Positions 26,575-54,689 of a stretch of 64,000 nt of DNA are shown here, piece after piece. Numbering within the stretch: the stretch's first letter is position 1; every line of letters starts with the position of its first letter. Location of the stretch: positions 1,888,001-1,952,000 of the forward strand of contig OY776510.1 of assembly GCA_963675665.1 (NCBI GenBank), given 5' to 3'. The stretch is from Spirochaetia bacterium. GTDB taxonomy: Bacteria; Spirochaetota; Spirochaetia; UBA9216. The notes under the pieces are model-generated. The model did no database searches. It was given only the letters and a program-made list of their open reading frames with translations, and was not told the DNA's origin. Position numbers and translations under genes: made by a program.

Positions 26575-27903
26575 TCAAACAAGCGTTTTCAGGCAGTCTT
26601 CAATGATATTCAGCGCTGTATCAATTTCCTTCTTTGTCACTATCAGCGGGGGAGCAAGCCTTATGCTTGAAACCCCCGCGCCGAGCAGCAGCAGGCCTTT
26701 TTCAAAGGCCGAAGTTATCAGTTTATCGCGTAACTCTTTTACGGGGCTTTTCTCGCCGGGTTTGACAAACTCCACACCGACCATTAACCCGAGGCCGCGG
26801 ATATCACCGACTGCCGGATATTTCTTCTGAATAACCTTTAACTGCTCTTTGAGATAAATCCCCATCTTTTCGGCGTTTTCTACCAGCTTTTCTTCCTTGA
26901 GGACTTTAAGAACCGCTTTTGCAGCCTCCATTATTACAGGGCCGCCGTTGAGGGTTCCTTCATGGGCGCCCGGGTCCCAGTCCATTACCTCCGCCTTCGC
27001 TATTGCGGCGCCCGCAGGAAGGCCGTGCGCAAATGCTTTAGATATTGTAATAATGTCGGGTTCCAGATCGAAATGCTCGCATGCAAACATTTTCCCGGTA
27101 CGTCCGAATCCGGTCTGAACTTCATCAACTATCAGTATGATTCCGTGTTTGTCGCAGATACGCCTGAGCTCCGTAAAAAACTCTTTTGGCGGAACTATAT
27201 AGCCTCCCGAGCCCTGAATAGCTTCAAGGATTATAAAGCTGACCTCGTCGGGCGGAAGGATCTTTTTGAAAATGATATCGGTCATGTAATTCATGCACTC
27301 GAGACCGCATGACGGGTACTCCCTGTTGAACATGCAGCGATAGCAATAGGGATAGGGAGTAAACTGTCCGATAGGGTACATAGGTGCAAAGCCCCTTCTG
27401 CCCTCAACATTGGTGGTTGTAAAACTTATTGCCCCCATTGTCCGGCCGTGAAAGCCGTTGATATAGCCTATTCCGTAAGGCCGCCTGTTATGTGCTTTGG
27501 CCATTTTTATTGCCGTATCAACCGATTCGCTTCCGCTGTTGGTGTAGAATATCTTTTTCCTGAAATTTCCCGGACTTAATGCGCAAATCTGTTCGGCATA
27601 ATCAACCTGCGGTGGTGAGTAGTAATCAAGACTGTTGACAAAGATAAGTTTATCAAGCTGCTTTTTTATCGCTTCAACAACAGCAGGATGTCTGTGACCA
27701 AGTGCTGTAACTGCTATGCCTGAACCGAAATCCAGAAAAACGTTTCCGTCCGGGTCTTCAATATACATTCCCTCGGCGTTTTCTCCTACAAGCGGGGCGC
27801 TTCGCGTAAGAGATCCCGACAGCAGTTTTTCATCTCTTTCAATAACGGCCGAGGCTTTCGGCCCCGGCGGGATTACCTTGATTTCCGGTCCGGAATACGA
27901 CAT
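26575..27903 (-). CDS. Class III PLP aminotransferase (4-aminobutyrate/acetylornithine family)
   Basis: NSGSES, FHGRT, DEVQTGFGRTG, PLP lysine in TISK, IRLAPPL. Confidence 0.92.
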   Translation of the reverse strand: MSYSGPEIKVIPPGPKASAVIERDEKLLSGSLTRSAPLVGENAEGMYIEDPDGNVFLDFGSGIAVTALGHRHPAVVEAIKKQLDKLIFVNSLDYYSPPQVDYAEQICALSPGNFRKKIFYTNSGSESVDTAIKMAKAHNRRPYGIGYINGFHGRTMGAISFTTTNVEGRRGFAPMYPIGQFTPYPYCYRCMFNREYPSCGLECMNYMTDIIFKKILPPDEVSFIILEAIQGSGGYIVPPKEFFTELRRICDKHGIILIVDEVQTGFGRTGKMFACEHFDLEPDIITISKAFAHGLPAGAAIAKAEVMDWDPGAHEGTLNGGPVIMEAAKAVLKVLKEEKLVENAEKMGIYLKEQLKVIQKKYPAVGDIRGLGLMVGVEFVKPGEKSPVKELRDKLITSAFEKGLLLLGAGVSSIRLAPPLIVTKKEIDTALNIIEDCLKTLV

Positions 27904-27946
27904 GGTCTGCTCCTGTTAAAGAAAATCTCAGGCTTGGAAAATTAGC

Positions 27947-27998
27947 GTGGTCTGACCGCCTGACTTTTAAGCTTATGAGGGAATTCCTTTATAGTCAA
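27947..27998 (-). promoter_or_regulatory. Aminotransferase promoter with FadR-type operator
   Basis: Minus strand TTGACT (27998-27993), 17 bp, TAAGCT (27975-27970); operator GCGGTCAGACCAC at 27959-27947. Confidence 0.7.
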
Positions 27999-28086
27999 GT
28001 TTTTTATCAAAAATTGATATATTAAGCCAAAAATCCTGTCCGGACAACGAATAACAGAATATATCTTATCATTTTTATATTAAAAT

Positions 28087-28135
28087 TTGACAAATCCACA
28101 ATCCGGTTTTACCATAATTAAAGCGGTCAGACCGC
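28087..28135 (+). promoter_or_regulatory. Promoter of the FadR-led operon with a palindromic operator
   Basis: TTGACA (28087-28092), 17 bp, TACCAT (28110-28115); GCGGTC-A-GACCGC at 28123-28135. Confidence 0.75.
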
Positions 28136-28147
28136 GAAGGTGCGGCA

Positions 28148-28870
28148 ATGTTCCAACAGGTTGAAAACAAGAAATATTATATGCAGATAGTTGATCAGAT
28201 AAGGCTTCTGATCGAGAAGGGTACTCTTAAAGTCGGCGACCGGCTTCCTCCCGAACGCGAGTTGTGTCAGAAATTCGGAACAAGCCGTGCGAGCATGCGT
28301 GAAGCGTTCAGCGTCCTTGAAACTCTGGGTATAATCGAGAGCCGAAGCGGGCAGGGGAATTTTATCAGGACTGATATTTCCCAGGTCCCTATCGATAGTG
28401 AATTTGTCAAGTCGCTGCTTATGGATCATGATCCGTTTGAGATCTATGAAACCCGCCTTGAAGTTGAACCGAGTATGGCGGCTTTTGCCGCACAGCGCGC
28501 AACTGAAGATGAAAAGTCTGCTCTCTGCAGTCAGCTGGAACAACTGAATGGTATCGGAGAAAGACTTGAAAGTGACAATATTTTTTTTGAGGATTATATG
28601 GAGGCTGATCGGCGGTTTCATCTGCTGGTCGGCAGAGCAGCACATAATCAGGTCTTGTTCATAGTATTCTCCGCGGTAAACCTGATGATGAAAGAAGACC
28701 ACTGGAAAAAAGTAAAAAGCAAGGGTGTATTAAAGCCGGGGAACCTGCAGATTTACAGAACCGAGCATTCACAGATCTGTGATGCAATATGCAAGGGCCG
28801 GGCCGAAGAAGCCAAGTTATATATGCGCAAACATATTCTGGATATAAGAGAGGATCTATTCAGTAACTGA
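28148..28870 (+). CDS. GntR/FadR family transcriptional regulator
   Basis: GDRLPPERELC..FGTSR.S.REA HTH; FCD domain with D..FH, N, H, H. Confidence 0.95.
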   Translation: MFQQVENKKYYMQIVDQIRLLIEKGTLKVGDRLPPERELCQKFGTSRASMREAFSVLETLGIIESRSGQGNFIRTDISQVPIDSEFVKSLLMDHDPFEIYETRLEVEPSMAAFAAQRATEDEKSALCSQLEQLNGIGERLESDNIFFEDYMEADRRFHLLVGRAAHNQVLFIVFSAVNLMMKEDHWKKVKSKGVLKPGNLQIYRTEHSQICDAICKGRAEEAKLYMRKHILDIREDLFSN

Positions 28871-28900
28871 TAAACGATTGAATAAATTTCTGGAGGGATT

Positions 28901-30976
28901 ATGAAATTACGTATGGGGGTAGACACGGGAGGAACTTTTACCGACTGTGTCGTTATTGACGAAAAGGGAGAGATTCACAGCTTCAAGGAGTTGTCCACAC
29001 CAAAGGACCCATCAATAGGCCTCTATAACGTAATTAAAAAGGCTGCAGGCTACTTCAAAAAAGATTTTAACGATTTCCTGGCCGGGCTTGATTTCTTTGC
29101 TCATGGAACAACGGTAGCTACCAATACCCTGCTTACGGGTACGGGAGCCGTAACCGGGCTGATTCTTACAAAAGGTTTTCGCGATTCTATTGAGATGCGG
29201 CGCGCCCATAAAAACAATATCTGGGACTTGTACCTCCCTGTTCCGACTCCGCTTGTTCCGAGATTTTTAAGAATCGGTATCGATGAACGGATTGATTATA
29301 AGGGTGATGTCGTTAAAAAGATGTCGGAAGAAGATGTTCGCAGGGCCTGCCGGATTTTCAGGCGGAACAATGTTGAAGCGGTTGCCGTCTGCACACTTTT
29401 TTCATTCTTAAATGATGAACATGAAAAACGTATCCGTGAGATTGTATGTGAAGAGCTGCCCAATGTTTTTATCTCGATATCTTCAGAAGTTCTTCCCCAG
29501 ATTCGTGAGTATGAACGTTCCTCGACAACTGTTGCAAATGCATATGTCGGACCCAAACTGACAATATACCTGGAAACCCTTGAAGCGCGTCTTAAAAATG
29601 ACGGCCTGAGCAGGGCTTTTTACGTTACGGCGTCGAACGGCGGAGTAATGACTGCCGACACGGCAATCAGGCACGCTTCGGCCACCCTTCTTTCAGGACC
29701 GGCAGCCGGGGCCGTTGGGGCAATGTATTTTGCCGACCTGCTTGACCGGCGAAATCTTATTCTTATGGACATGGGCGGAACATCTTTCGATGTAACCCTG
29801 ATTCACGATGCCGGTGTTACGCTGAGTACCGAAGGCGAAATAGCAGGTTACCGGGTAGCCAAACCCATGATCGATATACATACCATAGGCGCCGGGGGCG
29901 GTTCGATTGCTTGGATGGACTCCGGCGGAATGCTGAAAGTCGGACCTGCATCGGCGGGCTCCGATCCCGGACCCGTCTGTTACGGAATCGGCGGAAAAGA
30001 ACCTGCAGTAACCGACGCCAATCTTCTGCTTGGCTATCTTAACAAGGATTATTTTCTGGGCGGAGAGATGAAAGTCGATAACGAAGCAGCAGCAGAAGCC
30101 GTAAGGACAAGGATTGCCGAACCCCTGGGGATCAGCGTTCCTGAAGCCGCGCATGGAATTTTCAGAATAATTAATCAGAATATGGCGGACGCTGCAAAGG
30201 TTGTATCGGTGCAGAAAGGTCATGACCCGCGTGAATTCGCTCTTGTAAGCGCAGGAGGCGCCTGTTCAATTCATGCGTGCAAGATTGCCGAAGAGCTCGG
30301 AGCCACATCGGTTATTGTTCCGAAGGCGGCGAGCGTTTTCTGTGCTCTGGGTATGCTTGAGTCCGATATAAAACTCGACAGCGTAAAAACCTATAACGCA
30401 ACCATTCCGGGTATTGATCTGGAAGATTTCAACAGGGTCATAGTCGATGTTGAAAAGAAAGCTCTTGCCGAATTGCTGCAGGAAGGGGTTGAAGCCGGGC
30501 GCGCATCGCTGCTTCGGCACCTGGATATGAGGTATGTCGGCCAGCATCACGAGGTTACGGTGGATATTCCTGCAGGCTGTATGATTGAAGAAAAGCATCT
30601 CGACGAGATTGCCGATTCTTTTCACAGCGCGCATGAAAAACTGTATACGTATTCGACCCCCGAGAGCCAGCTTGAGATTATGGGACTACGCGTGACTGCT
30701 GTAGGAGCCGTCGACAAGGCAGAAGCTGCTCAAATCAGGCAGGAATCAATCGATATAGAAAAAGCTTTCAAGAACAGGCGAAAAGCCTGGTTTGCCGATG
30801 ATTCCGGGACGGGAAGTTTTATTGACGTTGATGTGTACGATCGCAATATGCTTGTTGCCGGACACCGGATTGCAGGCCCGGCTATTGTTGAAGAGCGAAT
30901 TACAACGGTGATAGTTCATCCGGGCTGGATTCTGAGCATTGATGAATATGGAAATATTATAATGGAGGCCGAGTGA
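28901..30976 (+). CDS. Hydantoinase/oxoprolinase family subunit A (ATP-dependent cyclic amide hydrolase)
   Basis: GVDTGGTFTD, HGTTVATN, REYER, SGPAAG, DMGGTSFD, GAGGGS, GPAIVEE. Confidence 0.93.
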   Translation: MKLRMGVDTGGTFTDCVVIDEKGEIHSFKELSTPKDPSIGLYNVIKKAAGYFKKDFNDFLAGLDFFAHGTTVATNTLLTGTGAVTGLILTKGFRDSIEMRRAHKNNIWDLYLPVPTPLVPRFLRIGIDERIDYKGDVVKKMSEEDVRRACRIFRRNNVEAVAVCTLFSFLNDEHEKRIREIVCEELPNVFISISSEVLPQIREYERSSTTVANAYVGPKLTIYLETLEARLKNDGLSRAFYVTASNGGVMTADTAIRHASATLLSGPAAGAVGAMYFADLLDRRNLILMDMGGTSFDVTLIHDAGVTLSTEGEIAGYRVAKPMIDIHTIGAGGGSIAWMDSGGMLKVGPASAGSDPGPVCYGIGGKEPAVTDANLLLGYLNKDYFLGGEMKVDNEAAAEAVRTRIAEPLGISVPEAAHGIFRIINQNMADAAKVVSVQKGHDPREFALVSAGGACSIHACKIAEELGATSVIVPKAASVFCALGMLESDIKLDSVKTYNATIPGIDLEDFNRVIVDVEKKALAELLQEGVEAGRASLLRHLDMRYVGQHHEVTVDIPAGCMIEEKHLDEIADSFHSAHEKLYTYSTPESQLEIMGLRVTAVGAVDKAEAAQIRQESIDIEKAFKNRRKAWFADDSGTGSFIDVDVYDRNMLVAGHRIAGPAIVEERITTVIVHPGWILSIDEYGNIIMEAE

Positions 30977-32730
30977 TGAGTGCAGTCAGAAAGAAGGAAT
31001 TTGAAGGCGCTGTAGATCCCATAACACTGTCGGTAATATACAACCGTCTGCTCACAATTAATGAAGAGATGGGGATAACTATGATAAACACCTCGATTTC
31101 TCCCATTTTTGCCGAGGCGCATGATTTTTCCTGTGCAATCTGCGACTGGAACAACCGTATAGTTGCCCAGATAGACGGTGTGCCGTCGCATACCGCTTCA
31201 GCTATGGAGTCGGTTAAAGCGGTAAGCGCCTACTTCGGGGATGATATAAACGACGGCGATGTGTTTGTCTTAAATGATCCTTATTCCGGCGGAACGCATC
31301 TGCCTGATCTGACGATTATGAAGCCGATTTTTTATAAAGGCAGCCTGCAGTTCATTGCCATAAACCGTGCCCATCACGGCGATGTCGGCGGAATTGATCC
31401 GGGATCATACTGCCCGTCGGCTACCGAGCTCTTTCATGAAGGAATAAGGATCCCGCCTCTGAGAATATATCGCGACAACAAACCTGTCATGGATGTTGTT
31501 GATATGATTCGGCTGAACACCAGAATGCCTGATGAACTGTGGGTTGATACGAAAGCAATGGTTGCTTCCTGCCGGGTCGCTGAAAAGCGGATTTACGAGC
31601 TTCTTGACAAGTACGGGGTGGAAATGACCCGCAGTACAATAGAAGAGATTCATCAGTATGCGGAACGCAGAATGAGAAAAGAGATTGAGGCTTTAAAAGA
31701 CGGAACCTATGTGGGCGAAACTTTTCTTGATAATGACGGCCATACCGATGATCCCATCCGCATAAAAGTGTCGATTACGATTAAGGGAGATGAAGCCTTT
31801 GTGGATTTTGACGGTACCGATGACCAGGTAACCGGTTTTATTAATTCACCGATAGCAAATACTGAAACCTGTGTTTATGTTGCCTTTCTGACAACCGTTA
31901 CAACACCGGATATCCCCCATAACGAGGGAGTTTACAGGCCTATTCATATTACCGCCCGCGAAGGTTCGATTGTGAATGCCCAGTTTCCCGCCGCTGTTGT
32001 GTCGTGTACGCTCGATACTGCATGCGCAATTCTTGAAGCGTGCTGGAAAGCCTTGTCCCAGGTGCTTCCCGATCGTGTGCCAGCCGGGTGGAATCGCTGG
32101 AACGGCCCCGCAATAGCCGGAGTAGACCCGAGAAGCGAAAACTTCTACGTTATGTTCGCATTCAACGGTTTCGGCGGCGCCGGGGGGATGTCCGGAATGG
32201 ACGGCAGGCATTATATCGGCGATGGAATTGATCTGGGCGGCCTGATTGCTCCGAATATCGAAACCAACGAGTCTGATTATCCCCATATAACCGAGTTCAA
32301 TGAATTCACGACGGACAGCTGCGGAGCCGGAAAATTCCGCGGCGGATGCGGCGCCGGTTACAGGATTAAAATGTACGATGATGAACCGAACCTGGTAATG
32401 TTCGGCGACGGCCGTGATAATCCTCCGTATGGTTTGTTCGGAGGCGGTGAAGGCAGCCCCAATATGGCTTGGCTTAATCAGGGGCTTGAAAACGAACGGC
32501 TGTTGAAATCTAAAGAGTCGGTAAACCTGCGTTCAGGCGAGACCTACACATCGTATCCTTCCGGAGGCGGAGGATGGGGTAACCCTGCCGAGCGTGATCC
32601 GGAACTTGTACGTCTTGATGCGATGAATGAAATAATCAGCCTCGAGGCTGCCGGGAAGATCTATAAGGTTGCTCTTGAAGGTGAAGACTTGCATATAAAC
32701 GAAGAAAAGACTGCTGAATTACGGAGGTGA
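30976..32730 (+). CDS. Hydantoinase B/oxoprolinase family subunit
   Basis: DFSCA, NDPYSGGTHLPD, HHGDVGG..PGS, EGIRIPP, GAGKFRGG, GGGGWG. Confidence 0.93.
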   Translation: MSAVRKKEFEGAVDPITLSVIYNRLLTINEEMGITMINTSISPIFAEAHDFSCAICDWNNRIVAQIDGVPSHTASAMESVKAVSAYFGDDINDGDVFVLNDPYSGGTHLPDLTIMKPIFYKGSLQFIAINRAHHGDVGGIDPGSYCPSATELFHEGIRIPPLRIYRDNKPVMDVVDMIRLNTRMPDELWVDTKAMVASCRVAEKRIYELLDKYGVEMTRSTIEEIHQYAERRMRKEIEALKDGTYVGETFLDNDGHTDDPIRIKVSITIKGDEAFVDFDGTDDQVTGFINSPIANTETCVYVAFLTTVTTPDIPHNEGVYRPIHITAREGSIVNAQFPAAVVSCTLDTACAILEACWKALSQVLPDRVPAGWNRWNGPAIAGVDPRSENFYVMFAFNGFGGAGGMSGMDGRHYIGDGIDLGGLIAPNIETNESDYPHITEFNEFTTDSCGAGKFRGGCGAGYRIKMYDDEPNLVMFGDGRDNPPYGLFGGGEGSPNMAWLNQGLENERLLKSKESVNLRSGETYTSYPSGGGGWGNPAERDPELVRLDAMNEIISLEAAGKIYKVALEGEDLHINEEKTAELRR

Positions 32731-33866
32731 GTGTGGAAATAAAAAAAATAGCTGTTCTGGGATCCGGAAACGGAGGGTTTATGAGCGCAGCCGATTTTGC
32801 CCTGCAGGGATATGAAGTTGCCATCTACTCCAGGAATGACGAGAAGATCGCAGGGGTTAGGGCTAACGGGGGGATAGATCTTCTGGACATTGACTCAAAC
32901 CCGACGGGGCAGAAGGCTGAAATTGCGTGTGCTACCTCCGATATTAAAGAAGCGCTGAAAGGCGCCCAGGTAGTTCTGAACCCGGTTCCAATTTTTGCAA
33001 GCAGTTTTTATGCTGAAAAATGCGCGCCGTATGTTGAAGACGGGCAAATCTTTGTCAGTCTGGGCAAGGGCGGAGCTTCACTTATATGGGCAAAGGTGTT
33101 CAAGGAAAAGGGTGTTTCCAAAAAGGTCTATCTTGCCGATACAAACACTCTGCCGTACGGTGCGTCCAGGATAGATGATCATTCCGTCAGGCTGGAAAAC
33201 AGAACACAGAATCTTCTTGCGGCCTGTTTTCCCGGAAAGGACATCAAATATGTTGGAGAGATACTTGAACAACTCTATACTCCGGACAACTACGATATCC
33301 GCTACGGGCAGAATGCCATAGATTCAATTCTTGTCGATTACAATGCTATAACGCATACGCCCCCGATGATCTGCAATGCGGCACGGATAGAAACCGGAGA
33401 TCCGGATTTTCATCTTTTCGGTAAAGATGAAAACACCCCGGCAGTTGTAAGGCTGATCGAAAGAATTGATCGCGAGCGTATGGCTATAGGAAAAGCACTC
33501 GGGCTGGAGCAGCACACACTTGAAGAAGAAATCCTGATGGTTAAGTGGAACCCGAATCAGGAAGATTATATTCTTCCGCTGTATGATGCCATCCACACCC
33601 CGTTTCTGGAAGTATGCGAAGGTCCGTTCAAACTTGAAACCAGGCACCTGACCGAGGATATACCTTACGGCCTTGTAACATATTCATCTCTCGGAAAGAT
33701 GCTTGGAGTGCCTACGCCGATATCGGATGCTGTAACTGCTATTGCCGGGGTTCTGCTCGATCGCGATTTTACAGCAAAAGGGAGGACTGTTGAACAGCTG
33801 GGAATTAATCCTTCATGGACAACTGAACAGCTGAAGCAATATCTTGAAGACGGAACAATAGAATAA
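32727..33866 (+). CDS. NAD(P)-dependent opine (octopine/nopaline) dehydrogenase family protein
   Basis: LGSGNGG Rossmann fold, TLPY..R, N...H.P, D.ER, RHLTEDIPYGL, GVPTP, GRT. Confidence 0.85.
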   Translation: MSVEIKKIAVLGSGNGGFMSAADFALQGYEVAIYSRNDEKIAGVRANGGIDLLDIDSNPTGQKAEIACATSDIKEALKGAQVVLNPVPIFASSFYAEKCAPYVEDGQIFVSLGKGGASLIWAKVFKEKGVSKKVYLADTNTLPYGASRIDDHSVRLENRTQNLLAACFPGKDIKYVGEILEQLYTPDNYDIRYGQNAIDSILVDYNAITHTPPMICNAARIETGDPDFHLFGKDENTPAVVRLIERIDRERMAIGKALGLEQHTLEEEILMVKWNPNQEDYILPLYDAIHTPFLEVCEGPFKLETRHLTEDIPYGLVTYSSLGKMLGVPTPISDAVTAIAGVLLDRDFTAKGRTVEQLGINPSWTTEQLKQYLEDGTIE

Positions 33867-36258: not shown

Positions 36259-36274
36259 GCAATCGGAGGTGGGA

Positions 36275-37858: not shown

Positions 37859-37933
37859 GGTTTTTAAATCCGTCGGTTAATCGGCCATGTTATGGTTCTC
37901 CGGCGGTTGTAATATTTTTTGGAGGTGATTCGG

Positions 37934-47413: not shown

Positions 47414-47431
47414 TCTCCTGAAGGAGCTTTT

Positions 47432-48820
47432 ATGGCTGATATTTTTATAAAGAACGCGCTGGTAATGACCTGTGAGCCGAATGTCATCAGCGGAGAAATT
47501 ATCGACGGCGGCGCTGTCGCAGTCAGGGACGACCGGATCATCGCAGTCGGTAAAACTGCGGATCTTGAACCTGAATACGGCAAATCCGAAAGGGTGATTG
47601 ATGCTGCCGGTAAAATCGTAATGCCCGGGTTTATAATTACCCATACTCATATGCCGTATGTGATGGGACATAACCAGCCGGTTGATTTCAGCCAGCTTCG
47701 CTCTTTTTGGGACATGCTTCAGAAAATGGGATGGGAATGGCTGGAAGATCTTATTACCCGGGAAGGAATCTACGCGGCAACCCGCTATGCAGCGGCAAAG
47801 ATGCTGAAAAGCGGTACGACCACGGTATGCGATCTTGTCGAGGCTCCCAATGACATGGACGGCGCCCTTGAGGCAAGTTCAAAAGCGATAGAAGAAATCG
47901 GAATAAGAGCTAACCTCGGGTACGAAGTAACCGAAAGGGTTCCGGGAGTTTCAATTCTCGAAAAACTGGATCCCGCAATGGCCCGAAAGGGGCTTGAAGA
48001 AAATATCCGGCTGATAGAAAAGTATCCGGCCGACGGCAATTCGCTGATAAAACCCCGCCTCGGAGTGCATACCGCCTATACAAACTCGCCTGAAACCCTG
48101 AAACTCGCCCGTGAAACCGCGGACCGCTACGGCTGCGGCATACAGATTCATATTGCCGAGATACCGAGGGCTTTCCTGGTTGAGAAATACGGAAAATCAG
48201 CACCGATGCTGCTTGAGGAATGCGGTCTTCTTGGCCCTGATGTTGTAGCCGCACATTGTATAGATTTAACCGATGAAGATTTGAACATCCTGGCGCGAAA
48301 CAGAGTGAACGTTGCACATACGCCGATGACCAACTCGCTGGGCGGAAACGGCGTTGCAAGGGTTCCCGATATGTTGCAGAGCGGTATGAACGTCACAATA
48401 GGACATGATTGTTTCTTTACTCTCGATACGTCGGAGTATATCCGTTATACATACCTTATTCATAAGGCCCATAATGCAAACCCGGCCCTGATGCCTCCTT
48501 TCATGCCGCTTGATTTTGCTTTGGGTAATGCTGCAAAAGCGTTAGGAATGGAAAAAACAATCGGCAGTATAACCGGAGGTAAAAAAGCGGATCTGCTGAT
48601 AATCAAACCCGATTGCCCGACCCCGCTGACTCCTGCGTCTGTTATGTCGTTTTTTACAATGACTTTTCTCGGCAAGGATGTCGAGACAGTGCTTGTCGAC
48701 GGCAGAATTGTAGTAGACGATAAAAAACTTGCCACAGGGGACGAAGATGCAATAATGGCCGAATGCGTAAGGCAAAGCACCGATCTCTGGGAACGGTGCA
48801 GCAGAAAGGGAGGTAATTGA
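47432..48820 (+). CDS. Metal-dependent amidohydrolase (SsnA/MtaD/guanine deaminase-like)
   Basis: MPGFI.THTH, GTTT, HTAY, HIAE, AHC, GHD, G.I..GKKADL. Confidence 0.88.
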   Translation: MADIFIKNALVMTCEPNVISGEIIDGGAVAVRDDRIIAVGKTADLEPEYGKSERVIDAAGKIVMPGFIITHTHMPYVMGHNQPVDFSQLRSFWDMLQKMGWEWLEDLITREGIYAATRYAAAKMLKSGTTTVCDLVEAPNDMDGALEASSKAIEEIGIRANLGYEVTERVPGVSILEKLDPAMARKGLEENIRLIEKYPADGNSLIKPRLGVHTAYTNSPETLKLARETADRYGCGIQIHIAEIPRAFLVEKYGKSAPMLLEECGLLGPDVVAAHCIDLTDEDLNILARNRVNVAHTPMTNSLGGNGVARVPDMLQSGMNVTIGHDCFFTLDTSEYIRYTYLIHKAHNANPALMPPFMPLDFALGNAAKALGMEKTIGSITGGKKADLLIIKPDCPTPLTPASVMSFFTMTFLGKDVETVLVDGRIVVDDKKLATGDEDAIMAECVRQSTDLWERCSRKGGN

Positions 48821-49995
48821 TGGCCGATATAAAGATTAATTTCTGCGGATTCAAACTGGATAATCCCGTGATTGTCCCCGCAGGGGCCCACGGCAGGGAC
48901 GCCGAGACCATTATCAGCGTCGGTAAAACCGGAGTAGCCGGTGTCTGCACTAAAACAATTACCGCCCAGGCTCCGCCGGATGTACGCCCGTGCTTTACGG
49001 CCGTTAATTCCGGCATGATCAATTCGGTATTCGGTTCGGATAAGCCGGCTGAATACTGGTTTTCGGAAGGTATTTCAAAGGCAAAAAAGACCGGCAGCGC
49101 GCTTGTGATTGCGAACCTGGCCGGTTTTTATCCCGAGCAGGCTGCCGAACTGGCAAAAATGGCGGTAGACTGCGGGGCTGATATGGTTGAAGTACCTACA
49201 CATTGCCCTCATATGGGCGAAATCCTGATGGCCATGTTTCCCGAAATGGAGATGTCCGAACCCAAACTTACGGACCTGGGCCCGATGAAAGCTTCGGTCG
49301 CCCTGATTAAAGAAGCAGTGAATGTTCCGGTAATCGTCAAACTCTCCGGAAGCTTTTCGAATATTGTCCGGGAATGGGCTGCCGGGGTCAGGGATTCGGG
49401 TGCGGATGCAATTGCGTGTTCCGATGCATTCGGACCGGCCCTTTCGATTGATCTCAAGACAGGACAACCGGCGCTCGGCGGACCGAGGGGCGTAGGAGGG
49501 CTGACAGGCCCGGCCATCAAGCCGATTGTACTGCGAATGGTAATGGAAATAGCCGATACGGTTGATTTACCGATAATAGGGGTCGGGGGAGCTTCAAGCG
49601 CTGAGGATGTTCTTGAATACACAATGGCGGGCGCTACCCTGGTAGGCGTATGCACTCACGGGCATATGAAAGGCATAAACGCATATGAAAAGCTTATAAA
49701 CTCCATATCCCCGGCACTTGACAAATACGGCTACGACAGCCTGGATGAGATCCGGGGATTGACTTTGAAACGAATTGAACAACGAAAAACTGAAGGAAAG
49801 CAGGCGGTTACAGAAGCTGTTGTACCTGCGGTTGATCATTCCCGTTGTATCCTCTGTAAAAAATGTGCCCGGGTATGTGCTTATGATGCTATAGTGATTA
49901 GGGACAAGGTTGAAGTATCGTCCGAAAAGTGTTACGGCTGCGGTTTGTGCGTCAGCGTATGCCCTGAAGATGCTTTGAGCCAGAATTATTACTAA
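48820..49995 (+). CDS. Dihydropyrimidine/dihydroorotate dehydrogenase-like FMN protein with C-terminal 2x[4Fe-4S] (PreA-like)
   Basis: NPV, TKT, HCPH, PVIVKL, GG.TGPAIKP, PIIGVGG, two CxxCxxCxxxC motifs. Confidence 0.85.
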   Translation: MADIKINFCGFKLDNPVIVPAGAHGRDAETIISVGKTGVAGVCTKTITAQAPPDVRPCFTAVNSGMINSVFGSDKPAEYWFSEGISKAKKTGSALVIANLAGFYPEQAAELAKMAVDCGADMVEVPTHCPHMGEILMAMFPEMEMSEPKLTDLGPMKASVALIKEAVNVPVIVKLSGSFSNIVREWAAGVRDSGADAIACSDAFGPALSIDLKTGQPALGGPRGVGGLTGPAIKPIVLRMVMEIADTVDLPIIGVGGASSAEDVLEYTMAGATLVGVCTHGHMKGINAYEKLINSISPALDKYGYDSLDEIRGLTLKRIEQRKTEGKQAVTEAVVPAVDHSRCILCKKCARVCAYDAIVIRDKVEVSSEKCYGCGLCVSVCPEDALSQNYY

Positions 49996-50060
49996 TACAG
50001 TTTTAAATATGTTATTTATTAGCCGGAAGGCTGTAAAAATAAATAAAAAAGGAGAAAACC

Positions 50061-51149
50061 ATGAAGGATAACAAAAAAATCCTGGCCGCGGCAGTAATTT
50101 TCTTACTGCTGATCACTCCGGTTCTTGTTTTTGCAGGAGGACAGCAGGAAGCTGCCGCTCCGGCAGCTCAGGAAGTCAAGAAGGAAGAACCTGCAAAAAA
50201 GGCTGAACCGTTCAAGCTGGCGGTAGTTGTCCCGGGCGTAACAGCCGGCAGTCCGCTATATGAACAGCTTGTTGAAGGGGCTCAGAAAGCTGTTGATGAA
50301 TATCCGAACGCTTCGATGAAGGTTGTCGAGCTTGGATTCAATCAGGCCGAATGGGCGGAAAAGATGACATCAATAGTTGCAACCTCCATGTATGACGTTG
50401 TTATCACTTCAAACCCGTCAATGCCGTTTGTATGTATGGATCTTGCCGCGCAGTTCCCCGAGCAGAAGTTTATTTTCGTCGATGCGTTTATAGAAGGGCA
50501 TCCCCAGATGGCTTCTTTCCTCTACAACCAGGTAGAGCAGTCCTATATGCTCGGTTATCTTGCCGGACTTATTACTACCAGCAAAATGCCGGGCGCAAAT
50601 GCTGATCTTAAAATCGGAGTTGTTGTAGCACAGGAATATCCCGCGCTTAACAAAATGATGGTTCCCGGTTTTGAACAGGGTGCCAAGGCGGTTAACCCCG
50701 GAATAACTCTTGATTATCGTGTAATCGGAAACTGGTATGATGCAAATAAAGCGGGTGAACTGGCAAAGAGCATGGTTGATTCGGGAGTAGATGTCATCGG
50801 CGTTATCTGCGGCGGAGCAGCCCCCGGTGTATTCGAAGTCTGTAAGGAAAGAAACAAATACGTTATGTACTGGGATGATAATTCCTACTCAAAGGCTCCC
50901 GGGATCATTGCAGGCTGCGGTGCTCTGCACCAGACCAAGCTTGTATATGAAGTTGTAAGCGATGCCATCAATGGAATGGTTGATTACGGAACAGGAACAA
51001 AGCTCTATTCAAGAGACGGATATATTGAATTTGTAAGCGATGATCCTAACTATATCAGCCTGATTCCGGAAGATATCAAGGCGAAGCAGAAGGAAGTTGT
51101 TGACTCAATCATGTCGGGGAAACTGAAACTGGAGATTCCCCAACTGTAA
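50061..51149 (+). CDS. BMP family (nucleoside-type) ABC substrate-binding protein
   Basis: FAGGQQE N-terminus; FPEQKF..VD, E.SY.LGYLAG, GF.QGA..VNP, GNW.DA. Confidence 0.88.
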   Translation: MKDNKKILAAAVIFLLLITPVLVFAGGQQEAAAPAAQEVKKEEPAKKAEPFKLAVVVPGVTAGSPLYEQLVEGAQKAVDEYPNASMKVVELGFNQAEWAEKMTSIVATSMYDVVITSNPSMPFVCMDLAAQFPEQKFIFVDAFIEGHPQMASFLYNQVEQSYMLGYLAGLITTSKMPGANADLKIGVVVAQEYPALNKMMVPGFEQGAKAVNPGITLDYRVIGNWYDANKAGELAKSMVDSGVDVIGVICGGAAPGVFEVCKERNKYVMYWDDNSYSKAPGIIAGCGALHQTKLVYEVVSDAINGMVDYGTGTKLYSRDGYIEFVSDDPNYISLIPEDIKAKQKEVVDSIMSGKLKLEIPQL

Positions 51150-51164
51150 GGTTGAAAATGAACA

Positions 51165-51192
51165 GAGGCCGTGGGCGGAAGTCCACGGCTTC
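51165..51192 (+). other. Stem-loop after the binding-protein gene
   Basis: GAGGCCGTGGGC-GGAA-GTCCACGGCTTC with G-U pairs and a GNRA loop. Confidence 0.6.
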
Positions 51193-51215
51193 AAATTTTA
51201 TTCAGGAAGGTGTAA

Positions 51216-52760
51216 GTGGAATCCTATCTTGGCATGCAGAACATCTGTAAAACGTTCAGTACAACGGGGCTTAAAGCAAACGACAATGTGAACCTTAATG
51301 TAAAAAAAGGGGAAATACACGCGCTTGTAGGTGAAAACGGCGCCGGAAAGACAACTCTGATGAATATCCTTTACGGGATAGAGCAAATGGATTCCGGGGT
51401 TGTCAGGCTCAACGGCAGGGATGTGAAGATTAACAATCCGATTGATGCAAACCGCCTGGGGATAGGAATGGTCCATCAGCACTTTAAACTAATAAACGAG
51501 TTTACTGTTGCCCAGAATGTGGTTTTGGGAATTGAGCCTGTTAAAGGGGCTGTTTTTTTTGATAACAGGAGGGCAGAGAAGGCTGTAGCCGATGTTATTG
51601 AAAAAAATCATTTCCATATTTCACCGGACGCCAGAATATCAGAGCTTAGCGTAGGACAGATGCAGCAGGTAGAAATAATAAAAATGCTCTACCGAAAGGC
51701 CGAACTGCTGATTCTTGATGAACCCACGTCGGTTCTGACGGAACAGGAGATACAAAGACTATTTGAAACCCTTACCGGACTTATCAAGCAGGATAAAACG
51801 ATTATTATTATCACTCATAAGCTTACCGAGGTTAAGGATATATCGGATCGCATTACCGTAATGAGGCGGGGTCAGGTTGTTGCTGAAAAGGATACGGCCG
51901 ATGTAGATGAAAGCGAAATATCCAGGCTAATGGTAGGAAAGCGCGTGCTGTTTGATTTCGGACAGAAGGTGGACGGCTGCAGGGACGCTGTTCTCAGTCT
52001 TGAAGATGTCACTATCAGCAAAAAAAAGCAGGGACGGCTTGTGCTTGATAGCATTAATTTCAGCGCTTCGACATGCGAGATTGTAGGGATAACCGGGGTA
52101 GCCGGAAACGGTCTTACCGAACTTGAAGATGTTATTGCAGGTTTGCAGAAAATCAGCAGCGGAAAGATATACCATAATGACAGTGATATTACTAATATTT
52201 CACCACGGGAGCGGCGTGACAAGGGCCTTGCGTATGTACCCACAGACAGGCTCAACCGCGGTTCAAGCCTTGAAACTTCAGTAAAGGAAAACCTTATATT
52301 GACCAGTCATCATGAGTTTATGAAATCGGGCGGAATTTTTGACGAAGAAAAGATTACACGTCACAGCAAGCGGCTTATTTCAGAATACATGATTGACGGG
52401 TCGTCCGATGTTGCAATCGGGACATTGTCGGGAGGCAATATCCAGAAAGTTATTCTGGCGCGTGAACTTGACCGGGTTAAGGATTTTGTTTTGTTCTCGG
52501 AACCGACCTGGGGGCTTGATGTTGCAAGCAGCGAGTTTATATACGAAAAGATGCTTGAAATGAGGGCGAGGGGCGTTGCAGTAGTTCTGATATCATCCAA
52601 CATAGATGAAATCCTGTCGCTTTCCGATACAATAATTGTTTTGTACCGGGGCAGAATTGTAACCAGGAAGAACGCCGGATCTGAACTTACGCGTGAGGAG
52701 ATAGGCGAGTATATGCTGGGTATCAAGGATGATTTTAAGGGAGACGCAGATGAAAATTAA
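51216..52760 (+). CDS. Nucleoside-type ABC transporter ATP-binding protein
   Basis: GENGAGKT, GMVHQHF, LDEPT, GVAGNG, LSGGNIQK, PTWGLD. Confidence 0.93.
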   Translation: MESYLGMQNICKTFSTTGLKANDNVNLNVKKGEIHALVGENGAGKTTLMNILYGIEQMDSGVVRLNGRDVKINNPIDANRLGIGMVHQHFKLINEFTVAQNVVLGIEPVKGAVFFDNRRAEKAVADVIEKNHFHISPDARISELSVGQMQQVEIIKMLYRKAELLILDEPTSVLTEQEIQRLFETLTGLIKQDKTIIIITHKLTEVKDISDRITVMRRGQVVAEKDTADVDESEISRLMVGKRVLFDFGQKVDGCRDAVLSLEDVTISKKKQGRLVLDSINFSASTCEIVGITGVAGNGLTELEDVIAGLQKISSGKIYHNDSDITNISPRERRDKGLAYVPTDRLNRGSSLETSVKENLILTSHHEFMKSGGIFDEEKITRHSKRLISEYMIDGSSDVAIGTLSGGNIQKVILARELDRVKDFVLFSEPTWGLDVASSEFIYEKMLEMRARGVAVVLISSNIDEILSLSDTIIVLYRGRIVTRKNAGSELTREEIGEYMLGIKDDFKGDADEN

Positions 52761-53790
52761 CCGCAGCGAAATGTTTATCTCATTTTCAGCGCTTCTAATC
52801 ACTCTCGGCGCGGCATTTCTGGTTATGCTTTTAATGATTTTTCTGATGAGCGAGACACCGGGTGAAACTATCTGGTTCTTTTTTGCCGGGCCGCTGACAA
52901 ACAGATATTACCTGGGAAACATGTTTAACGCCGCCATCCCCCTGATCCTGACCGGGCTTGGGATTTCGTTTGCATTCAGGGCATCAATGTTTAATCTCGG
53001 GGGCGAAGGCCAGGTATACGCCGGCGGATTGGCCGCCACAGCTGTCTGCCTTGCAATGCCAGCCGCCGCAGGTTTTTTCGGAATCACCGTCAGCCTTCTG
53101 GCGGCAGTTGTTACCGGCTCCGTGATTGCCGGGCTCTCAGGATTTTTCAAGATGAAATGGAGAACGGATGAACTGATATCATCATTTCTTATCTCAAATG
53201 CACTGATATATGTAGTTGACTTTTTCATTACGGGGCCGCTTGATGATCCTGTAAACAACCTGCTTACTACCGGTAAAATTTCCGAGCAGTTTTGGTTTAT
53301 GAAGATCTTTTTACCGTCAAATCTTGATATCAGCATCATTTTTGTAGTTTTAATCGCTGTTCTGGCCTTTTTCTATTTATTCAGAACCCATCAGGGCTAT
53401 GAAATGAGAATGTGCGGTCTTAATTCGGAATTTGCACGGTACGGGGGGATTAATGTAAAAATCTATATGATTCTGCCGATGCTGTGGAGCGGCGCTTTTC
53501 ACGGTCTTGCCGGCGCATTATCAATTCTGGGTACGCACCATATGTGCCTGAAAGGTTTTTCCGGAGGAATGGGCTGGAACGGAATTGCCGTTGCGCTTAT
53601 AGCCAAGAACAATCCTGTGGCTGTAATACCGGCGGCGTTGTTTTTTGCATACCTGGAGGCCGGGGCAAAGTCAGCAATGATTAATGCCGATGTTACAATT
53701 GAAATAGCGTCCGTTGTCCAGTCGGTTGTATTCTTTTTAATAACGGCCCAGGCCATATATAATTTTGTCAGATACAGGAGTGCAAGATGA
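52750..53790 (+). CDS. Nucleoside-type ABC transporter permease
   Basis: PLILTGL, FNLGGEGQ, G.N..FARYGGI, G.NGIAVAL.A.NNP. Confidence 0.92.
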   Translation: MKINRSEMFISFSALLITLGAAFLVMLLMIFLMSETPGETIWFFFAGPLTNRYYLGNMFNAAIPLILTGLGISFAFRASMFNLGGEGQVYAGGLAATAVCLAMPAAAGFFGITVSLLAAVVTGSVIAGLSGFFKMKWRTDELISSFLISNALIYVVDFFITGPLDDPVNNLLTTGKISEQFWFMKIFLPSNLDISIIFVVLIAVLAFFYLFRTHQGYEMRMCGLNSEFARYGGINVKIYMILPMLWSGAFHGLAGALSILGTHHMCLKGFSGGMGWNGIAVALIAKNNPVAVIPAALFFAYLEAGAKSAMINADVTIEIASVVQSVVFFLITAQAIYNFVRYRSAR

Positions 53791-54689
53791 ACGGCAATGA
53801 GTTCACAATCCCTCTGATACATAATTCAATAAATATAATGACTCCGTTCCTGCTTGCCGGAATCGGCGGCCTGATGACCGAGCTTGCCGGAATGCTTAAT
53901 ATCGCGCTTGAAGGTCTGATCCTTATAGGTGCATTTTTCAGCGTAATTTTCGCAGCTGCCACGGGAAGCCTGTTTCTGGGACTGCTGCTTGGAATTCTTA
54001 TGACAGTGCTTGTTTCATATGTGTTCGGAGCAATTACCCTTTACCTCAAGGCAAATGTATTTATAACCGGGCTGGCAACAAACCTTCTTGCCGGGGGACT
54101 TACAGCTGTTTTGTCTTTCTATTTTTTCGGAACAAAGGGAAACCTGATGTTTAACGATCTCCCTGATCTGCCGCGGCTGAATGTTCCCGCACTTCATGGA
54201 ATCCCGGTGATTGGAGATATTCTTTTCGGTCATAATGTTCTTGTTTACATAGGATGGGTGATTGTAATAATTGCGTGGATAGCCATTTATAAGACCGCGT
54301 TCGGTTTCAGACTTCGGGGGACGGGAAGTAATCCGAAAGCCATGATAGCACTGGGATTGAATCCGAAAAACTACCAGATGATTGGAATCCTTATTTCCGG
54401 GTTTACCTGCGGAATTGCGGGGGCTGTGCTTACGCTTAACCTGGGAGCGTATGTTCCGAACATATCGGCAGGAAGGGGATGGATTGCACTGGTTGTAATA
54501 TACCTCGGCGGGAAAACACCCTTCGGTATTCTCGGGGCTGCTTTTGTGTTCGGACTTGCCGAGAGCCTGTCCAATTACGCGCAGGGGTTTACGGACATAC
54601 CGGCGGATTTCATCCTGGCTTTTCCGTATATAATAACTGTTGTTGCGATGGTGATAATGTCGGTTGTCCGGCATCGGCGGGAGGAATAG
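53787..54689 (+). CDS. Nucleoside-type ABC transporter permease
   Basis: E.AG.LNIALEG, G.RLR..G.NP, AGRGWIAL, PYI.T. Confidence 0.92.
   Translation: MNGNEFTIPLIHNSINIMTPFLLAGIGGLMTELAGMLNIALEGLILIGAFFSVIFAAATGSLFLGLLLGILMTVLVSYVFGAITLYLKANVFITGLATNLLAGGLTAVLSFYFFGTKGNLMFNDLPDLPRLNVPALHGIPVIGDILFGHNVLVYIGWVIVIIAWIAIYKTAFGFRLRGTGSNPKAMIALGLNPKNYQMIGILISGFTCGIAGAVLTLNLGAYVPNISAGRGWIALVVIYLGGKTPFGILGAAFVFGLAESLSNYAQGFTDIPADFILAFPYIITVVAMVIMSVVRHRREE

Follow-up and report, generated by a model that had tools for sequence, protein, structure and literature searches.

A spirochaete gene island with a Grd-type reductase lacking the pyruvoyl-forming cysteine, proposed to act in anaerobic riboflavin catabolism

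Introduction

Anaerobic breakdown of riboflavin was reported only in 2026, from transcriptomics of gut Lachnospiraceae, and ends there at lumichrome; within the accessible text of that report, its enzymes are unassayed (Quiles-Perez et al. 2026; PMC13492142). Clostridium scindens performs this conversion anaerobically, and one induced neighbourhood encodes RibF (finB), a class I aldolase (finC), alcohol (finD) and aldehyde (finG) dehydrogenases and a pair of Grd-family proteins (finHI); F. fissicatena is described as making hydroxyethylflavin and as having no finGHI (PMC13492142; bioRxiv 10.64898/2026.02.13.705874). In their proposal, finBCD would release a triose, and finHI would take the two-carbon unit that is left off the ring nitrogen (PMC13492142). 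Here we describe an island of genes on a stretch of 64,000 nucleotides from a Spirochaetia bacterium (GenBank assembly GCA_963675665.1, contig OY776510.1, positions 1,888,001 to 1,952,000 of the forward strand; hereafter the window), and we propose that it encodes a variant of this candidate pathway, in another phylum, made of different parts and with an added ring-degrading block.

For lumichrome itself, an aerobic pathway is described in Nocardioides simplex (Sinha et al. 2025; accessible text of PMC12746152). It comprises a hydrolase that opens the pyrimidine ring reversibly (LumH; 40% at equilibrium), a de-ureidase that removes urea (LumI), an amidine hydrolase (LumM), a decarboxylase dependent on thiamine diphosphate (ThDP; LumK/L) and a hydroxylase of the XO family acting on a quinoxalinone (LumJ). 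Our search for literature on anaerobic lumichrome degradation, whose coverage stopped short of subscription journals, returned only the fin paper and this aerobic Lum paper.

In known Grd systems, protein C releases acetyl phosphate. Glycine and sarcosine require a carbonyl for their activation as a Schiff base, whereas FarE, like GrdI, is described as having no conserved processing cysteines and thus as not being made as a proprotein (accessible text of PMC10838667). GrdH/GrdI and FarB/FarE are thus precedents for substrates that give no Schiff base; their non-selenoprotein subunit does without a pyruvoyl proprotein, and GrdA and GrdC/D make acetyl phosphate from a compound of the type X-CH2-COO- (PMC10838667).

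A first-pass annotation of positions 26575 to 54689 had proposed the uptake of a modified nucleoside, purine or creatinine-like compound, followed by ring opening, phosphorolytic decarbamoylation and reductive cleavage of an N-carboxymethyl product, and had pointed to the hydantoinase route that feeds sarcosine reductase in creatinine fermenters. As detailed below, its gene content stands, but the ligand, the source of the carboxymethyl group and the limits of the unit have to be revised.

Results

The window, which lies in a complete 5.15-Mb genome, was annotated from a six-frame open reading frame (ORF) listing together with Pfam and NCBIfam scans, and these scans recovered every gene that the first-pass annotation had named (Table 1). 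Its reductase bears the hallmarks of the Grd family, namely a selenocysteine in a UxxC motif of protein B, a selenocysteine in protein A and a protein C; the frames are open past both TGA codons, and selA and selB are adjacent. An Rfam match to SECIS_4 (35989-36026, E 0.0056) fell under the gathering score, and the hairpin behind the GrdA TGA has an energy of -14.2 kcal/mol (z -1.5). Because the STUGTCTRC motif is kept and GrdA and the fused GrdCD both exceed their equivalog cut-offs, the predicted enzyme should still pass a carboxymethyl group on to selenoprotein A, with acetyl phosphate as the product.

The substrate-specific subunits did not fall into any of the characterised types. The GrdB-like protein missed the NCBIfam cut-offs for GrdF (487 vs 800), GrdB (TIGR01917; 454 vs 602) and GrdH (423 vs 775), its score with TIGR01918 being 481 (cut-off 65). 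The GrdE-like protein scored 254 against the 780 required for GrdG and 127 against the 675 required for FarE. Neither of these two cut-offs was reached by any of the 68 GrdE homologues scanned with NCBIfam, and most of them had GrdG scores of 200-300; since this is the baseline of the family, the GrdG score cannot place the protein. The GrdE-like gene is the sole PF09338 gene of the genome. Its product had no match among the PDB sequences at E 0.01, and a PF09338 search of 14 control genomes gave no match. Canonical GrdE, which is present in 9/9 genomes of a Treponema-like genus (2.8 Mb) and in 20 of the 38 of a Brachyspira-like family, is 30-37% identical to the window protein in a sample of 400 Spirochaetota genomes, and canonical spirochaete GrdE reaches 681 bits with PF09338, compared with 377 for the GrdE-like protein of the window.

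The two types also differ at the cleavage site. Canonical GrdE of the Treponema-like and Brachyspira-like genomes reads SGN-C-VSAC, whereas the window protein and all its spirochaete orthologues read SGN-Y-VWPC. The canonical cysteine is residue 242 of the 428-aa Brachyspira-like GrdE, and we take it to be the residue that becomes the pyruvoyl group. In an alignment of 146 sequences (137 family representatives and 9 others, the window protein included), this position is a Tyr in 73 sequences, a Phe in 17 and a Cys in 9. As the pyruvoyl-forming cysteine has been lost, the leaving group would be one that needs no Schiff base or cannot form one. The sarcosine reductase route of the first-pass annotation does not agree with such a subunit.

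Relatives of the GrdE-like protein were found at loci of the fin type. Beyond the spirochaete clade, whose members are at least 68% identical, the nearest ones are 49-53% identical and include a protein cluster with Lachnospiraceae and Dorea members; identity to the GrdB and GrdE of fin-like loci is 47-53%. Two Treponema-like genomes (G203 and G321) have a second pair, GrdB'/GrdE', of the SGN-Y type and 47-48% identical to that of the window. The pair of G203 is preceded by genes for an aldehyde dehydrogenase and an HTH-cupin regulator and followed, in this order, by those for a DeoC-type aldolase, a Zn-dependent alcohol dehydrogenase (Zn-ADH), an amino-acid-type permease and RibF. A metagenome scan with the Lachnospiraceae protein as the query gave 78 loci, 44 of which were at least 9 kb long. 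The context of these 44 was tallied by hand from tblastn matches (E at most 1e-12, at least half of the query covered, flanks of at most 9 kb). An aldehyde dehydrogenase was present at 36 of them, an alcohol dehydrogenase (ADH) at 17, RibF at 14 and an aldolase at 11; all four stood beside GrdB'-GrdE' at 9/44, which corresponds to the finB, C, D, G and HI set. HydAB, the OTC-like carbamoyltransferase OTC1 and the opine dehydrogenase were found within 9 kb of none of the 44.

Variants were seen at three of the related loci. At L110 an Fe-S protein and AOR take the aldehyde dehydrogenase's place. At L084 the genes directly upstream of a Grd set of the fin type, which includes thioredoxin, GrdA, GrdCD, selA and selB, encode an XDH trimer and an amidohydrolase that shares 65% identity with the one of the window, and at L132 an XDH trimer is found beside a fin-type Grd set. 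L084 and L132 are not spirochaete-like, and they may represent an independent coupling of side-chain removal to ring attack.

A quick maximum-likelihood tree (IQ-TREE, 46 rows) unites the spirochaete sequences (a clade with support 100) with the fin-like ones (likewise 100) and a single other protein at an SH-aLRT of 99, and the Cys-type GrdE clade (support 99) lies in the opposite half. The order GrdB-then-GrdE is common to the window and the fin-type loci; canonical loci start with GrdE. By sequence, the GrdB and GrdE of the window are thus probably kin to the fin-type loci, the connection running through loci of matching gene content and the Lachnospiraceae/Dorea cluster rather than through the named FinH and FinI. 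The first-pass annotation had expected this pair to stand apart from the characterised glycine, sarcosine and betaine enzymes, and the missed cut-offs, the identity of 33-37% to canonical spirochaete GrdE and the position in opposite halves of the tree all agree with it.

The ABC transporter had been taken for a nucleoside-type system. The best solved relative of its binding protein is 4IIL, TP0298/RfuA of Treponema pallidum (E 2.2e-77, vs 1.4e-19 for the nucleoside receptor PnrA), with homology to TP0298 over residues 41-358. RfuA is reported to bind riboflavin through contacts with S24, Y27, N82 (before P83), Y157 and W189 (Deka et al. 2013; accessible text of PMC3573665), and S24, Y27, N82-P83, Y157 and W189 are all identical in the HMMER alignment (chain offset 22). 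The window shares these contacts, a fused two-domain ATPase and two permeases with the RfuABCD of pathogenic spirochaetes (PMC3573665); it differs in that the system, whose ligand is putative, forms part of a presumed catabolic island and in that the window gave no match to an FMN riboswitch. Most likely, the transporter is an RfuABCD-type riboflavin importer and not of the nucleoside type. The only RibF-type match of the genome (G000:C1:3589374-3589868) extends over positions 2-168 of the model, which are its FAD-synthetase part, at a score of 85.8 (cut-off 184). In FMN formation by this organism, the FGGY kinase next to rfuABCD could have a part.

The order of the genes is kept in at least 8 other spirochaete genomes. 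As judged by tblastn, the window proteins recur in the same order in spirochaete genomes and metagenome-assembled genomes (MAGs) at 45-93% identity, and in the species-genome collection the related loci were in Spirochaetales or Spirochaetia MAGs in 11 cases out of 11. The front part, from GntR/HydA to the XDH genes, is present at L008, L009, L010, L012, L017 and L052; the Fe-S protein and AOR are missing from an otherwise matching front part at L011 and L016, and the aminotransferase is divergent from the GntR gene also at L008, L010, L012 and L017. The rear part is found at L050, L051, L057, L058, L059 and L145; in genomes G004, G005, G436, G438 and G439 it consists of the amidohydrolase, PreA-like protein, binding protein, ABC genes, ADH, kinase, aldolase, MFS, selB and selA. 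Behind rfuABCD, the five-gene side-chain module is complete in G004, G005 and G436; MerR is absent in G438 and G439, MFS in G003, both in G008, and G012 has only the kinase and MFS of this module. The selB/selA pair is at the equivalent position in G003, G004, G005, G012, G436, G438 and G439.

The GrdE-like gene is patchy, being present in 5/40 relatives (2/5 in the same genus, 3 in other families). It was not found in G003 (100% complete) or G008 (98% complete); that it was missed in G005 is probably an effect of the assembly, which is 81% complete and in which the rear-part contig begins inside the block. In G003 and G008 the OTCase gene is followed by rfuA and those for the ATPase and both permeases, then by (MerR), ADH, kinase and aldolase; G003 continues with selB and selA. 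The OTCase there is 82-88% identical to OTC0 of the window, and rfuA comes directly after it. In the window, OTC0 (end at 26554) and rfuA (start at 50061) are kept apart by the 23.5 kb from the aminotransferase to PreA. Because G003 and G008 keep the OTCase-rfuABCD unit contiguous, 26555-50060 is an inserted block, or else one that was lost elsewhere. The G+C content is 0.46-0.52 in the block, 0.36-0.43 in the 8 kb upstream and 0.46-0.51 downstream. The block lies directly upstream of rfuABCD-ADH-kinase-aldolase in G004, G005, G436, G438 and G439, and in part in G012. The short unit without Grd genes in G003 and G008 parallels the short fin variant of F. fissicatena (accessible text of PMC13492142).

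Some loci contain additional genes. The spacer between GrdE and GrdA (37586-37933), which in the window holds about seven tandem hairpins and is unique in the genome, is replaced at L052 by a 393-aa gene resembling thioredoxin reductase (11340-12521), and other loci are likewise. Furthermore, L052 (G031) has a complete transketolase between OTC1 and GrdB (6662-8680; NF004559, 626 bits, cut-off 488), and L011 shows a similarly sized gap at the same position (6750-8620). The window itself has neither gene at these places; a thioredoxin reductase and a carbamate kinase (2.063 Mb) are encoded elsewhere in the genome.

In the side-chain module, the DhnA/DeoC-type aldolase (57718-58506) has the same best model, NF005556, as the Treponema fin-like aldolase. 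It and the Zn-ADH (55235-56257) are 35-37% identical to the Treponema fin-type pair, and both have paralogues in the genome. We considered whether the two could be called the closest fin-type pair of the genome and rejected this, an aldolase at 4.40 Mb being nearer.

The enzymes of the putative ring module also scored below the equivalog models. HydAB reached 738 and 432 against cut-offs of 1000 each for the caprolactamase alpha and beta subunits, and neither is an equivalog. The opine-type dehydrogenase matches 1bg6, N-(1-D-carboxyethyl)-L-norvaline dehydrogenase (CENDH), over residues 3-361 (E 5.9e-41). In the window and in 6/6 aligned orthologues, OTC1 has STRTS, and NVYSWVSPEV with an insert of 12 residues takes the place of its SMG loop; at the HCLP site, the window and L008 have HPMP and the other orthologues HCMP or HCLP. 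OTC0 has all the motifs of an ornithine carbamoyltransferase, whereas OTC1 does not, and it scored 84 against 453 for YgeW; from its motifs OTC1 is a non-ornithine carbamoyltransferase. The best solved relatives of the Mo subunit and of the amidohydrolase are, respectively, nicotinate dehydrogenase (3hrd, E 9e-97) and atrazine chlorohydrolase. The XDH-family enzyme scored 251 against 1102 for the XdhD type (TIGR03313). The SsnA, YgeW and XdhD cut-offs are reached nowhere in the cluster, which also has no D-hydantoinase, YgeY or YgeX.

Genes of the purine type are found elsewhere, in a separate cluster of the urate/2,8-dioxopurine type at 3.306-3.331 Mb (G000:C1:3306000-3331000; L146, L147). 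YgeW (689 vs 453), YgeY (489 vs 321) and D-hydantoinase (576 vs 393) exceed their cut-offs there, an SsnA-like protein scores 370 against 444, and an XdhD/XdhA-like subunit, a second XDH and an 8-oxoguanine deaminase are present; YgeX was not found at this place. An allantoate-amidohydrolase-type enzyme and a PduL-type phosphotransacylase are encoded there as well. That purines have a urate-type cluster of their own argues against purines as the substrate of the window's cluster and, together with the RfuA homology, against the nucleoside or purine uptake proposed earlier.

The genes from 28148 to 54689 are co-oriented on the + strand, with the class III aminotransferase divergent on the - strand. 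Apart from the 348 bp between GrdE and GrdA, neighbouring genes on the + strand are -32 to 66 bp apart, in accord with the tight packing and co-orientation noted in the first-pass annotation. Its genes inside 26575-54689 were all confirmed; its right-hand limit was too short, the conserved unit running on to 59668 through the genes for MerR, Zn-ADH, FGGY kinase, DeoC-family aldolase and MFS with gaps of at most 27 bp. For the 95-aa ORF of the AOR region, previously called MoaD, no Pfam match was obtained even at E 0.01; as its C-terminus is Gly-Gly-Gly, MoaD is a plausible name for this sequence.

Table 1. Features of the island and its flanks, in window coordinates. Scores are given against the cut-off of the model where there is one.
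Feature	Position	Strand	Evidence
OTC0, canonical ornithine carbamoyltransferase, left flank outside the block	25559..26554	+	STRTR, HPTQ, DVWVSMG, HCLP motifs
Class III aminotransferase, first gene of the inserted block	26575..27903	-	PF00202 2.8e-116; NF004426 553 vs cut-off 552
Divergent control region, 244 bp	27904..28147		palindromes and promoter-like site
GntR/FCD-family regulator ('FadR')	28148..28870	+	PF00392 and PF07729
ATP-dependent hydantoinase/lactamase A and B (HydAB)	28901..32730	+	PF01968, PF05378, PF19278, PF02538
Opine-type dehydrogenase (Octopine_DH family)	32727..33866	+	PF02317
OTC1, OTC-like carbamoyltransferase with non-ornithine second-substrate site	33916..34920	+	TIGR00658 268 vs 281
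GrdB-like selenoprotein B, STUGTCTRC	34936..36258	+	PF07355 445 bits; TGA at 35986 read as Sec
GrdE-like subunit without pyruvoyl-forming Cys, SGN-Y-VWPC	36269..37585	+	PF09338; alignment with canonical SGN-C-VSAC
GrdE-GrdA spacer, tandem hairpins	37586..37933	+	348 bp; fold -110.4 kcal/mol
GrdA selenoprotein A, TGA at 38057	37934..38392	+	NF040748 250 vs cut-off 130
Thioredoxin	38383..38703	+	PF00085
Fused GrdC-GrdD (protein C)	38703..41267	+	NF040746 620 vs 450; NF040747 391 vs 350
4Fe-4S protein, AOR (W/Mo-pterin), 95-aa ORF ending GGG	41268..43783	+	PF01314, PF02730
XDH-family molybdenum hydroxylase: FAD, 2Fe-2S and Mo subunits	43789..47413	+	pucD 558 vs 784
TRZ/ATZ-SsnA-type amidohydrolase (deaminase or ring hydrolase)	47432..48820	+	SsnA 257 vs 455
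PreA/UacX-like (DHODH-like) FMN reductase, two 4Fe-4S motifs, last block gene	48817..49995	+	PF01180 and Fer4; PreA 191 vs 335
rfuABCD-like riboflavin ABC importer: BMP-family binding protein, fused ATPase, two permeases	50061..54689	+	4IIL E 2.2e-77
MerR, Zn-ADH, FGGY kinase, DhnA/DeoC-type class I aldolase, MFS (side-chain module)	54717..59668	+	Pfam, NCBIfam
selB and selA, convergent on the side-chain module	59649..62742	-	PF00009, PF09107, PF03841

Palindromes of the form GGTC(A/T)GACC are present in the divergent control region at 27947-27959 and 28123-28135. With at most 2 mismatches there are 5 matches in the window (0.67 expected), and the genome has the exact 13-mer a single time. Pairs of exact palindromes were also present between the orthologous genes at L008, L010 and L017, and L012, read by eye, has one-mismatch variants only. 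The block would be controlled by the GntR/FCD-type repressor. A promoter-like site, TTGACA-17-TACCAT, lies upstream of the GntR gene (28087-28115). Single promoter-like and terminator-like sites are leads only: the former were not above the shuffled expectation in the two halves of the window (27 vs 22.3 and 27 vs 23.2), and the latter numbered 22 in the first half and 39 in the second, 22.7 being expected for each. Rfam scans of the window (E up to 1) gave no riboswitch for FMN, purines, glycine or Moco, all matches being a TD-2 RNA, the sub-threshold SECIS_4 and one chance miRNA match.

The TD-2 RNA, a member of an sRNA family first described from Treponema denticola, is at 2821-2919 on the - strand (55.9 bits against a gathering score of 48.7). 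A second BMP-family protein, of 529 aa and unrelated to the RfuA-type one, is encoded at 13425-15014 on the - strand, with neighbours that have no Pfam matches.

Discussion

We propose that the island serves the anaerobic catabolism of riboflavin in two layers, and we consider the chances of this model, taken as a whole, to be about even. Its substrates and reactions are what we infer from gene content and kinship. The first layer (50061-59668) is widespread in the spirochaete family. RfuABCD would import riboflavin, the FGGY kinase would phosphorylate the 5'-OH of the ribityl chain and the Zn-dependent alcohol dehydrogenase would oxidise its 4'-OH; the DhnA-type class I aldolase would then cut between C2' and C3' to give dihydroxyacetone phosphate and 10-formylmethylflavin. 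In the second layer (26555-50060), the tungsten-type AOR with its Fe-S partner would convert 10-formylmethylflavin to 10-carboxymethylflavin. The Cys-less GrdB/GrdE would transfer the carboxymethyl group from ring N10 to selenoprotein A and release lumichrome, a Schiff base on N10 being neither possible nor needed, and thioredoxin and the fused GrdCD would turn the carboxymethyl group into acetyl phosphate.

The steps beyond lumichrome may be carried out by the remaining enzymes of the block. HydAB is a candidate for an ATP-driven opening of the pyrimidine ring (the step of LumH), OTC1 for the phosphorolysis of the ureido group to carbamoyl phosphate (that of LumI), with carbamate kinase acting next, the amidohydrolase for amidine hydrolysis (LumM) and the XDH-family enzyme for hydroxylation of the quinoxalinone (LumJ); for the decarboxylation by LumK/L, the candidate is the transketolase of L052 (PMC12746152, as far as the accessible text describes these steps). 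Later intermediates, quinoxalines or N-aryl amino acids, would be left to the PreA-like reductase, the aminotransferase and the opine-type dehydrogenase. More speculatively, reduction of the quinoxalinone C=N bond and an ATP-driven opening of the lactam could give an N-aryl-glycine, which would be a second substrate of the Grd enzyme or of the opine dehydrogenase. The half of the model that concerns the side chain and the Grd enzyme is more likely to be right than the lumichrome half.

The gene content is closest to that of fin. A kinase, an alcohol dehydrogenase, a class I aldolase, an aldehyde-oxidising enzyme and a GrdB-then-GrdE pair are found in both (accessible text of PMC13492142), and the fin-like loci share with the window a Tyr at the pyruvoyl site and, in the quick tree, a common clade of GrdE-like proteins. 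The window differs in its FGGY kinase, where fin has RibF, its tungsten-type AOR, where fin has an aldehyde dehydrogenase, and its RfuABCD, where fin-like loci have an amino-acid-type permease; it belongs to another phylum and has a GrdA, a thioredoxin, a fused GrdCD and selAB of its own. It also has the putative ring module of HydAB, OTC1, opine dehydrogenase, XDH, amidohydrolase, PreA-like enzyme and aminotransferase, whereas C. scindens is described as halting at lumichrome (PMC13492142).

Betaine reductase (GrdH/GrdI) and FarB/FarE resemble the window enzyme in their unprocessed partner subunit; for betaine reductase this is a likeness of mechanism only. The GrdB-like protein keeps UxxCxxC, unlike FarB, and the FarE score is low. 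Furthermore, the proposed leaving group is the ring nitrogen of a flavin and not trimethylamine or fluoride. The aerobic Lum pathway, compared by its chemistry, has similar early steps through the XO-family hydroxylation to a quinoxalinedione (accessible text of PMC12746152). The window has no P450, Rieske or catechol dioxygenases, and its ring opening would be ATP-driven and its de-ureidation phosphorolytic and ATP-yielding.

At its fullest, the model would mean that whole riboflavin is fermented by free-living spirochaetes without oxygen with three energy hooks (dihydroxyacetone phosphate, acetyl phosphate and carbamoyl phosphate), by the first Grd enzyme with a heteroaromatic nitrogen as leaving group, a 'carboxymethylflavin reductase', and with the first anaerobic degradation of lumichrome by way of quinoxalines; the Grd or opine-type enzyme may in addition cleave a second N-aryl-glycine. 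We regard this extension as possible but doubtful.

The most serious alternative is that the block and the rfu unit are mere neighbours, which we think unlikely on balance. The block would then degrade another N-heterocycle (a pterin/lumazine, a nicotinate-like compound, a methylated purine or a lactam), its Grd enzyme would cleave another X-CH2-COO- compound (an N-aryl, N-ureido or N-guanidino glycine), RfuABCD would salvage the vitamin, and the ADH, kinase, aldolase and MFS would take a free polyol. Several findings favour such a view and weigh against ours. rfuA is single-copy, and the organism is a probable riboflavin auxotroph, as judged from lumazine synthase, for which there was no match in the genome (the control was positive in 14/14 genomes), so that the transporter could serve vitamin salvage alone. 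RfuA homologues of at least 40% identity occur in 25/40 relatives by hand tally, compared with 5/40 for the GrdE-like protein. (As it is present in relatives without the block, RfuA was rejected as a block marker.) At least two further kinase-dehydrogenase-aldolase polyol modules are present in the genome, at 15074-25453 of the window and at G000:C1:4390000-4409999 (L140). Each of these has an FGGY kinase, an SDR or Zn-ADH, a DeoC-family aldolase, a C_GCAxxG protein and a sugar ABC transporter. A promoter-like site by MerR (54721-54749, 11/12 matches) suggests that the MerR module is possibly a transcription unit of its own, and the strongest terminator-like hairpin, behind rfuA (51165-51192), also allows for separate units. 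Finally, the Mo subunit is nearest to a solved nicotinate dehydrogenase, and HydAB, OTC1 and the opine dehydrogenase are no part of the fin-type flanks that were scanned.

Yet, the block is directly upstream of rfuA in every spirochaete locus that is long enough (G004, G005, G012, G436, G438 and G439), and the 65 bp that separate PreA from rfuA contain no terminator-like site. GrdB and GrdE are nearest to fin-type pairs, L110 shows the exchange for AOR, and L084 combines the amidohydrolase and XDH with a fin-type Grd set. Nor does the mere-neighbour explanation offer a source for an X-CH2-COO- substrate, which the ribityl chain would provide under the riboflavin model.

Other points also speak against riboflavin catabolism. 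Riboflavin is scarce in most habitats, and an island of 33 kb for its degradation would be surprising. RibF and an aldehyde dehydrogenase (PF00171) are both missing from the cluster, where an FGGY kinase and AOR are found instead, the best match of the genome to the Treponema aldehyde dehydrogenase being 34% and outside the cluster; the link to C. scindens rests on matching loci and not on a direct comparison with FinH/FinI. The aldolase at 4.40 Mb is 48% identical to the Treponema fin aldolase, vs 35% for that of the cluster, and from their sequences the ADH and aldolase are only candidates for counterparts of FinD and FinC. In the ring module, the Lum steps are assigned to the block enzymes by chemical analogy only and not by comparison with Lum sequences. 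Lumichrome offers an XDH-type enzyme no C-H beside a ring nitrogen until the pyrimidine ring is gone, the model has no specific role for the opine dehydrogenase, aminotransferase and PreA-like enzyme, and the block has no gene for a ThDP decarboxylase in the window.

Glycine reductase is the last step of classical clostridial purine fermentation, and a variant of that fermentation could be imagined, in which XDH, an SsnA-like hydrolase and a UacX-like reductase open a purine and a divergent glycine reductase takes the final glycine. The enzyme types of the window do resemble those of the reductive urate pathway. Common to both are a Mo hydroxylase, an SsnA-like amidohydrolase in translational coupling with a PF01180-type Fe-S/FMN reductase, a hydantoinase and a carbamoyltransferase giving carbamoyl phosphate, and the SsnA similarity network of the work on that pathway includes Spirochaetota (accessible text of bioRxiv 10.1101/2025.05.19.654654). 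But the window cut-offs are missed, for SsnA, YgeW and the XdhD type alike, its hydantoinase is of the ATP-dependent A/B kind, its carbamoyltransferase is OTC-like and not the knotted YgeW, and there is no YgeY or YgeX in the cluster. A YgeW/YgeY/D-hydantoinase/SsnA-like/XDH cluster lies elsewhere in the genome, the cut-off for the glycine GrdB was missed and the pyruvoyl cysteine is absent, all of which makes this reading very improbable. Least probable of all is a creatinine- or hydantoin-like ring, opened by an ATP-dependent hydantoinase, followed by phosphorolysis of the N-carbamoyl product and a sarcosine-type reduction of the secondary amine: HydAB does belong to the N-methylhydantoinase/oxoprolinase/caprolactamase family, OTC1 could yield carbamoyl phosphate, GrdF is the top NCBIfam score of the GrdB-like protein and a fused GrdCD is also known from the N-methylhydantoin degrader Clostridium sp. 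FS41 (PMC4417704), but the GrdF and GrdG scores are far below their cut-offs, the latter at the family baseline, the pyruvoyl-forming cysteine for amine substrates is absent, and XDH, AOR, aldolase, kinase and RfuA would be left without a role.

For these reasons riboflavin is a more likely substrate than a nucleoside, a purine or a creatinine-like compound. Of the earlier proposals, the reductive cleavage of an N-carboxymethyl product and the action of AOR on an aldehyde fit the evidence well, but for the N-carboxymethyl group the ribityl chain is a likelier origin than ring opening. The statement that no described pathway has this combination of genes now applies to a part of it: the side-chain half matches the fin proposal of 2026 (PMC13492142) and the first ring steps have aerobic precedents (PMC12746152), as far as the accessible texts go, whereas the putative ring-degrading block is without a described anaerobic counterpart in the papers that our searches reached.

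For annotation, these observations mean that the labels 'nucleoside ABC transporter' and 'glycine reductase' mislead on loci of this kind. 10-Carboxymethylflavin is a concrete candidate substrate for the large clade of Cys-less GrdE proteins, and the transketolase of L052 is of interest because the aerobic lumichrome pathway employs a ThDP-dependent heterocycle decarboxylase (accessible text of PMC12746152). If the model is true, Grd-type cleavage would extend to a bond that links a carboxymethyl carbon to a heteroaromatic nitrogen, and an ATP-driven ring opening together with an ATP-yielding phosphorolytic de-ureidation would be the anaerobic counterparts of the aerobic Lum hydrolases. The island would then show a route by which lumichrome is removed in anoxic habitats.

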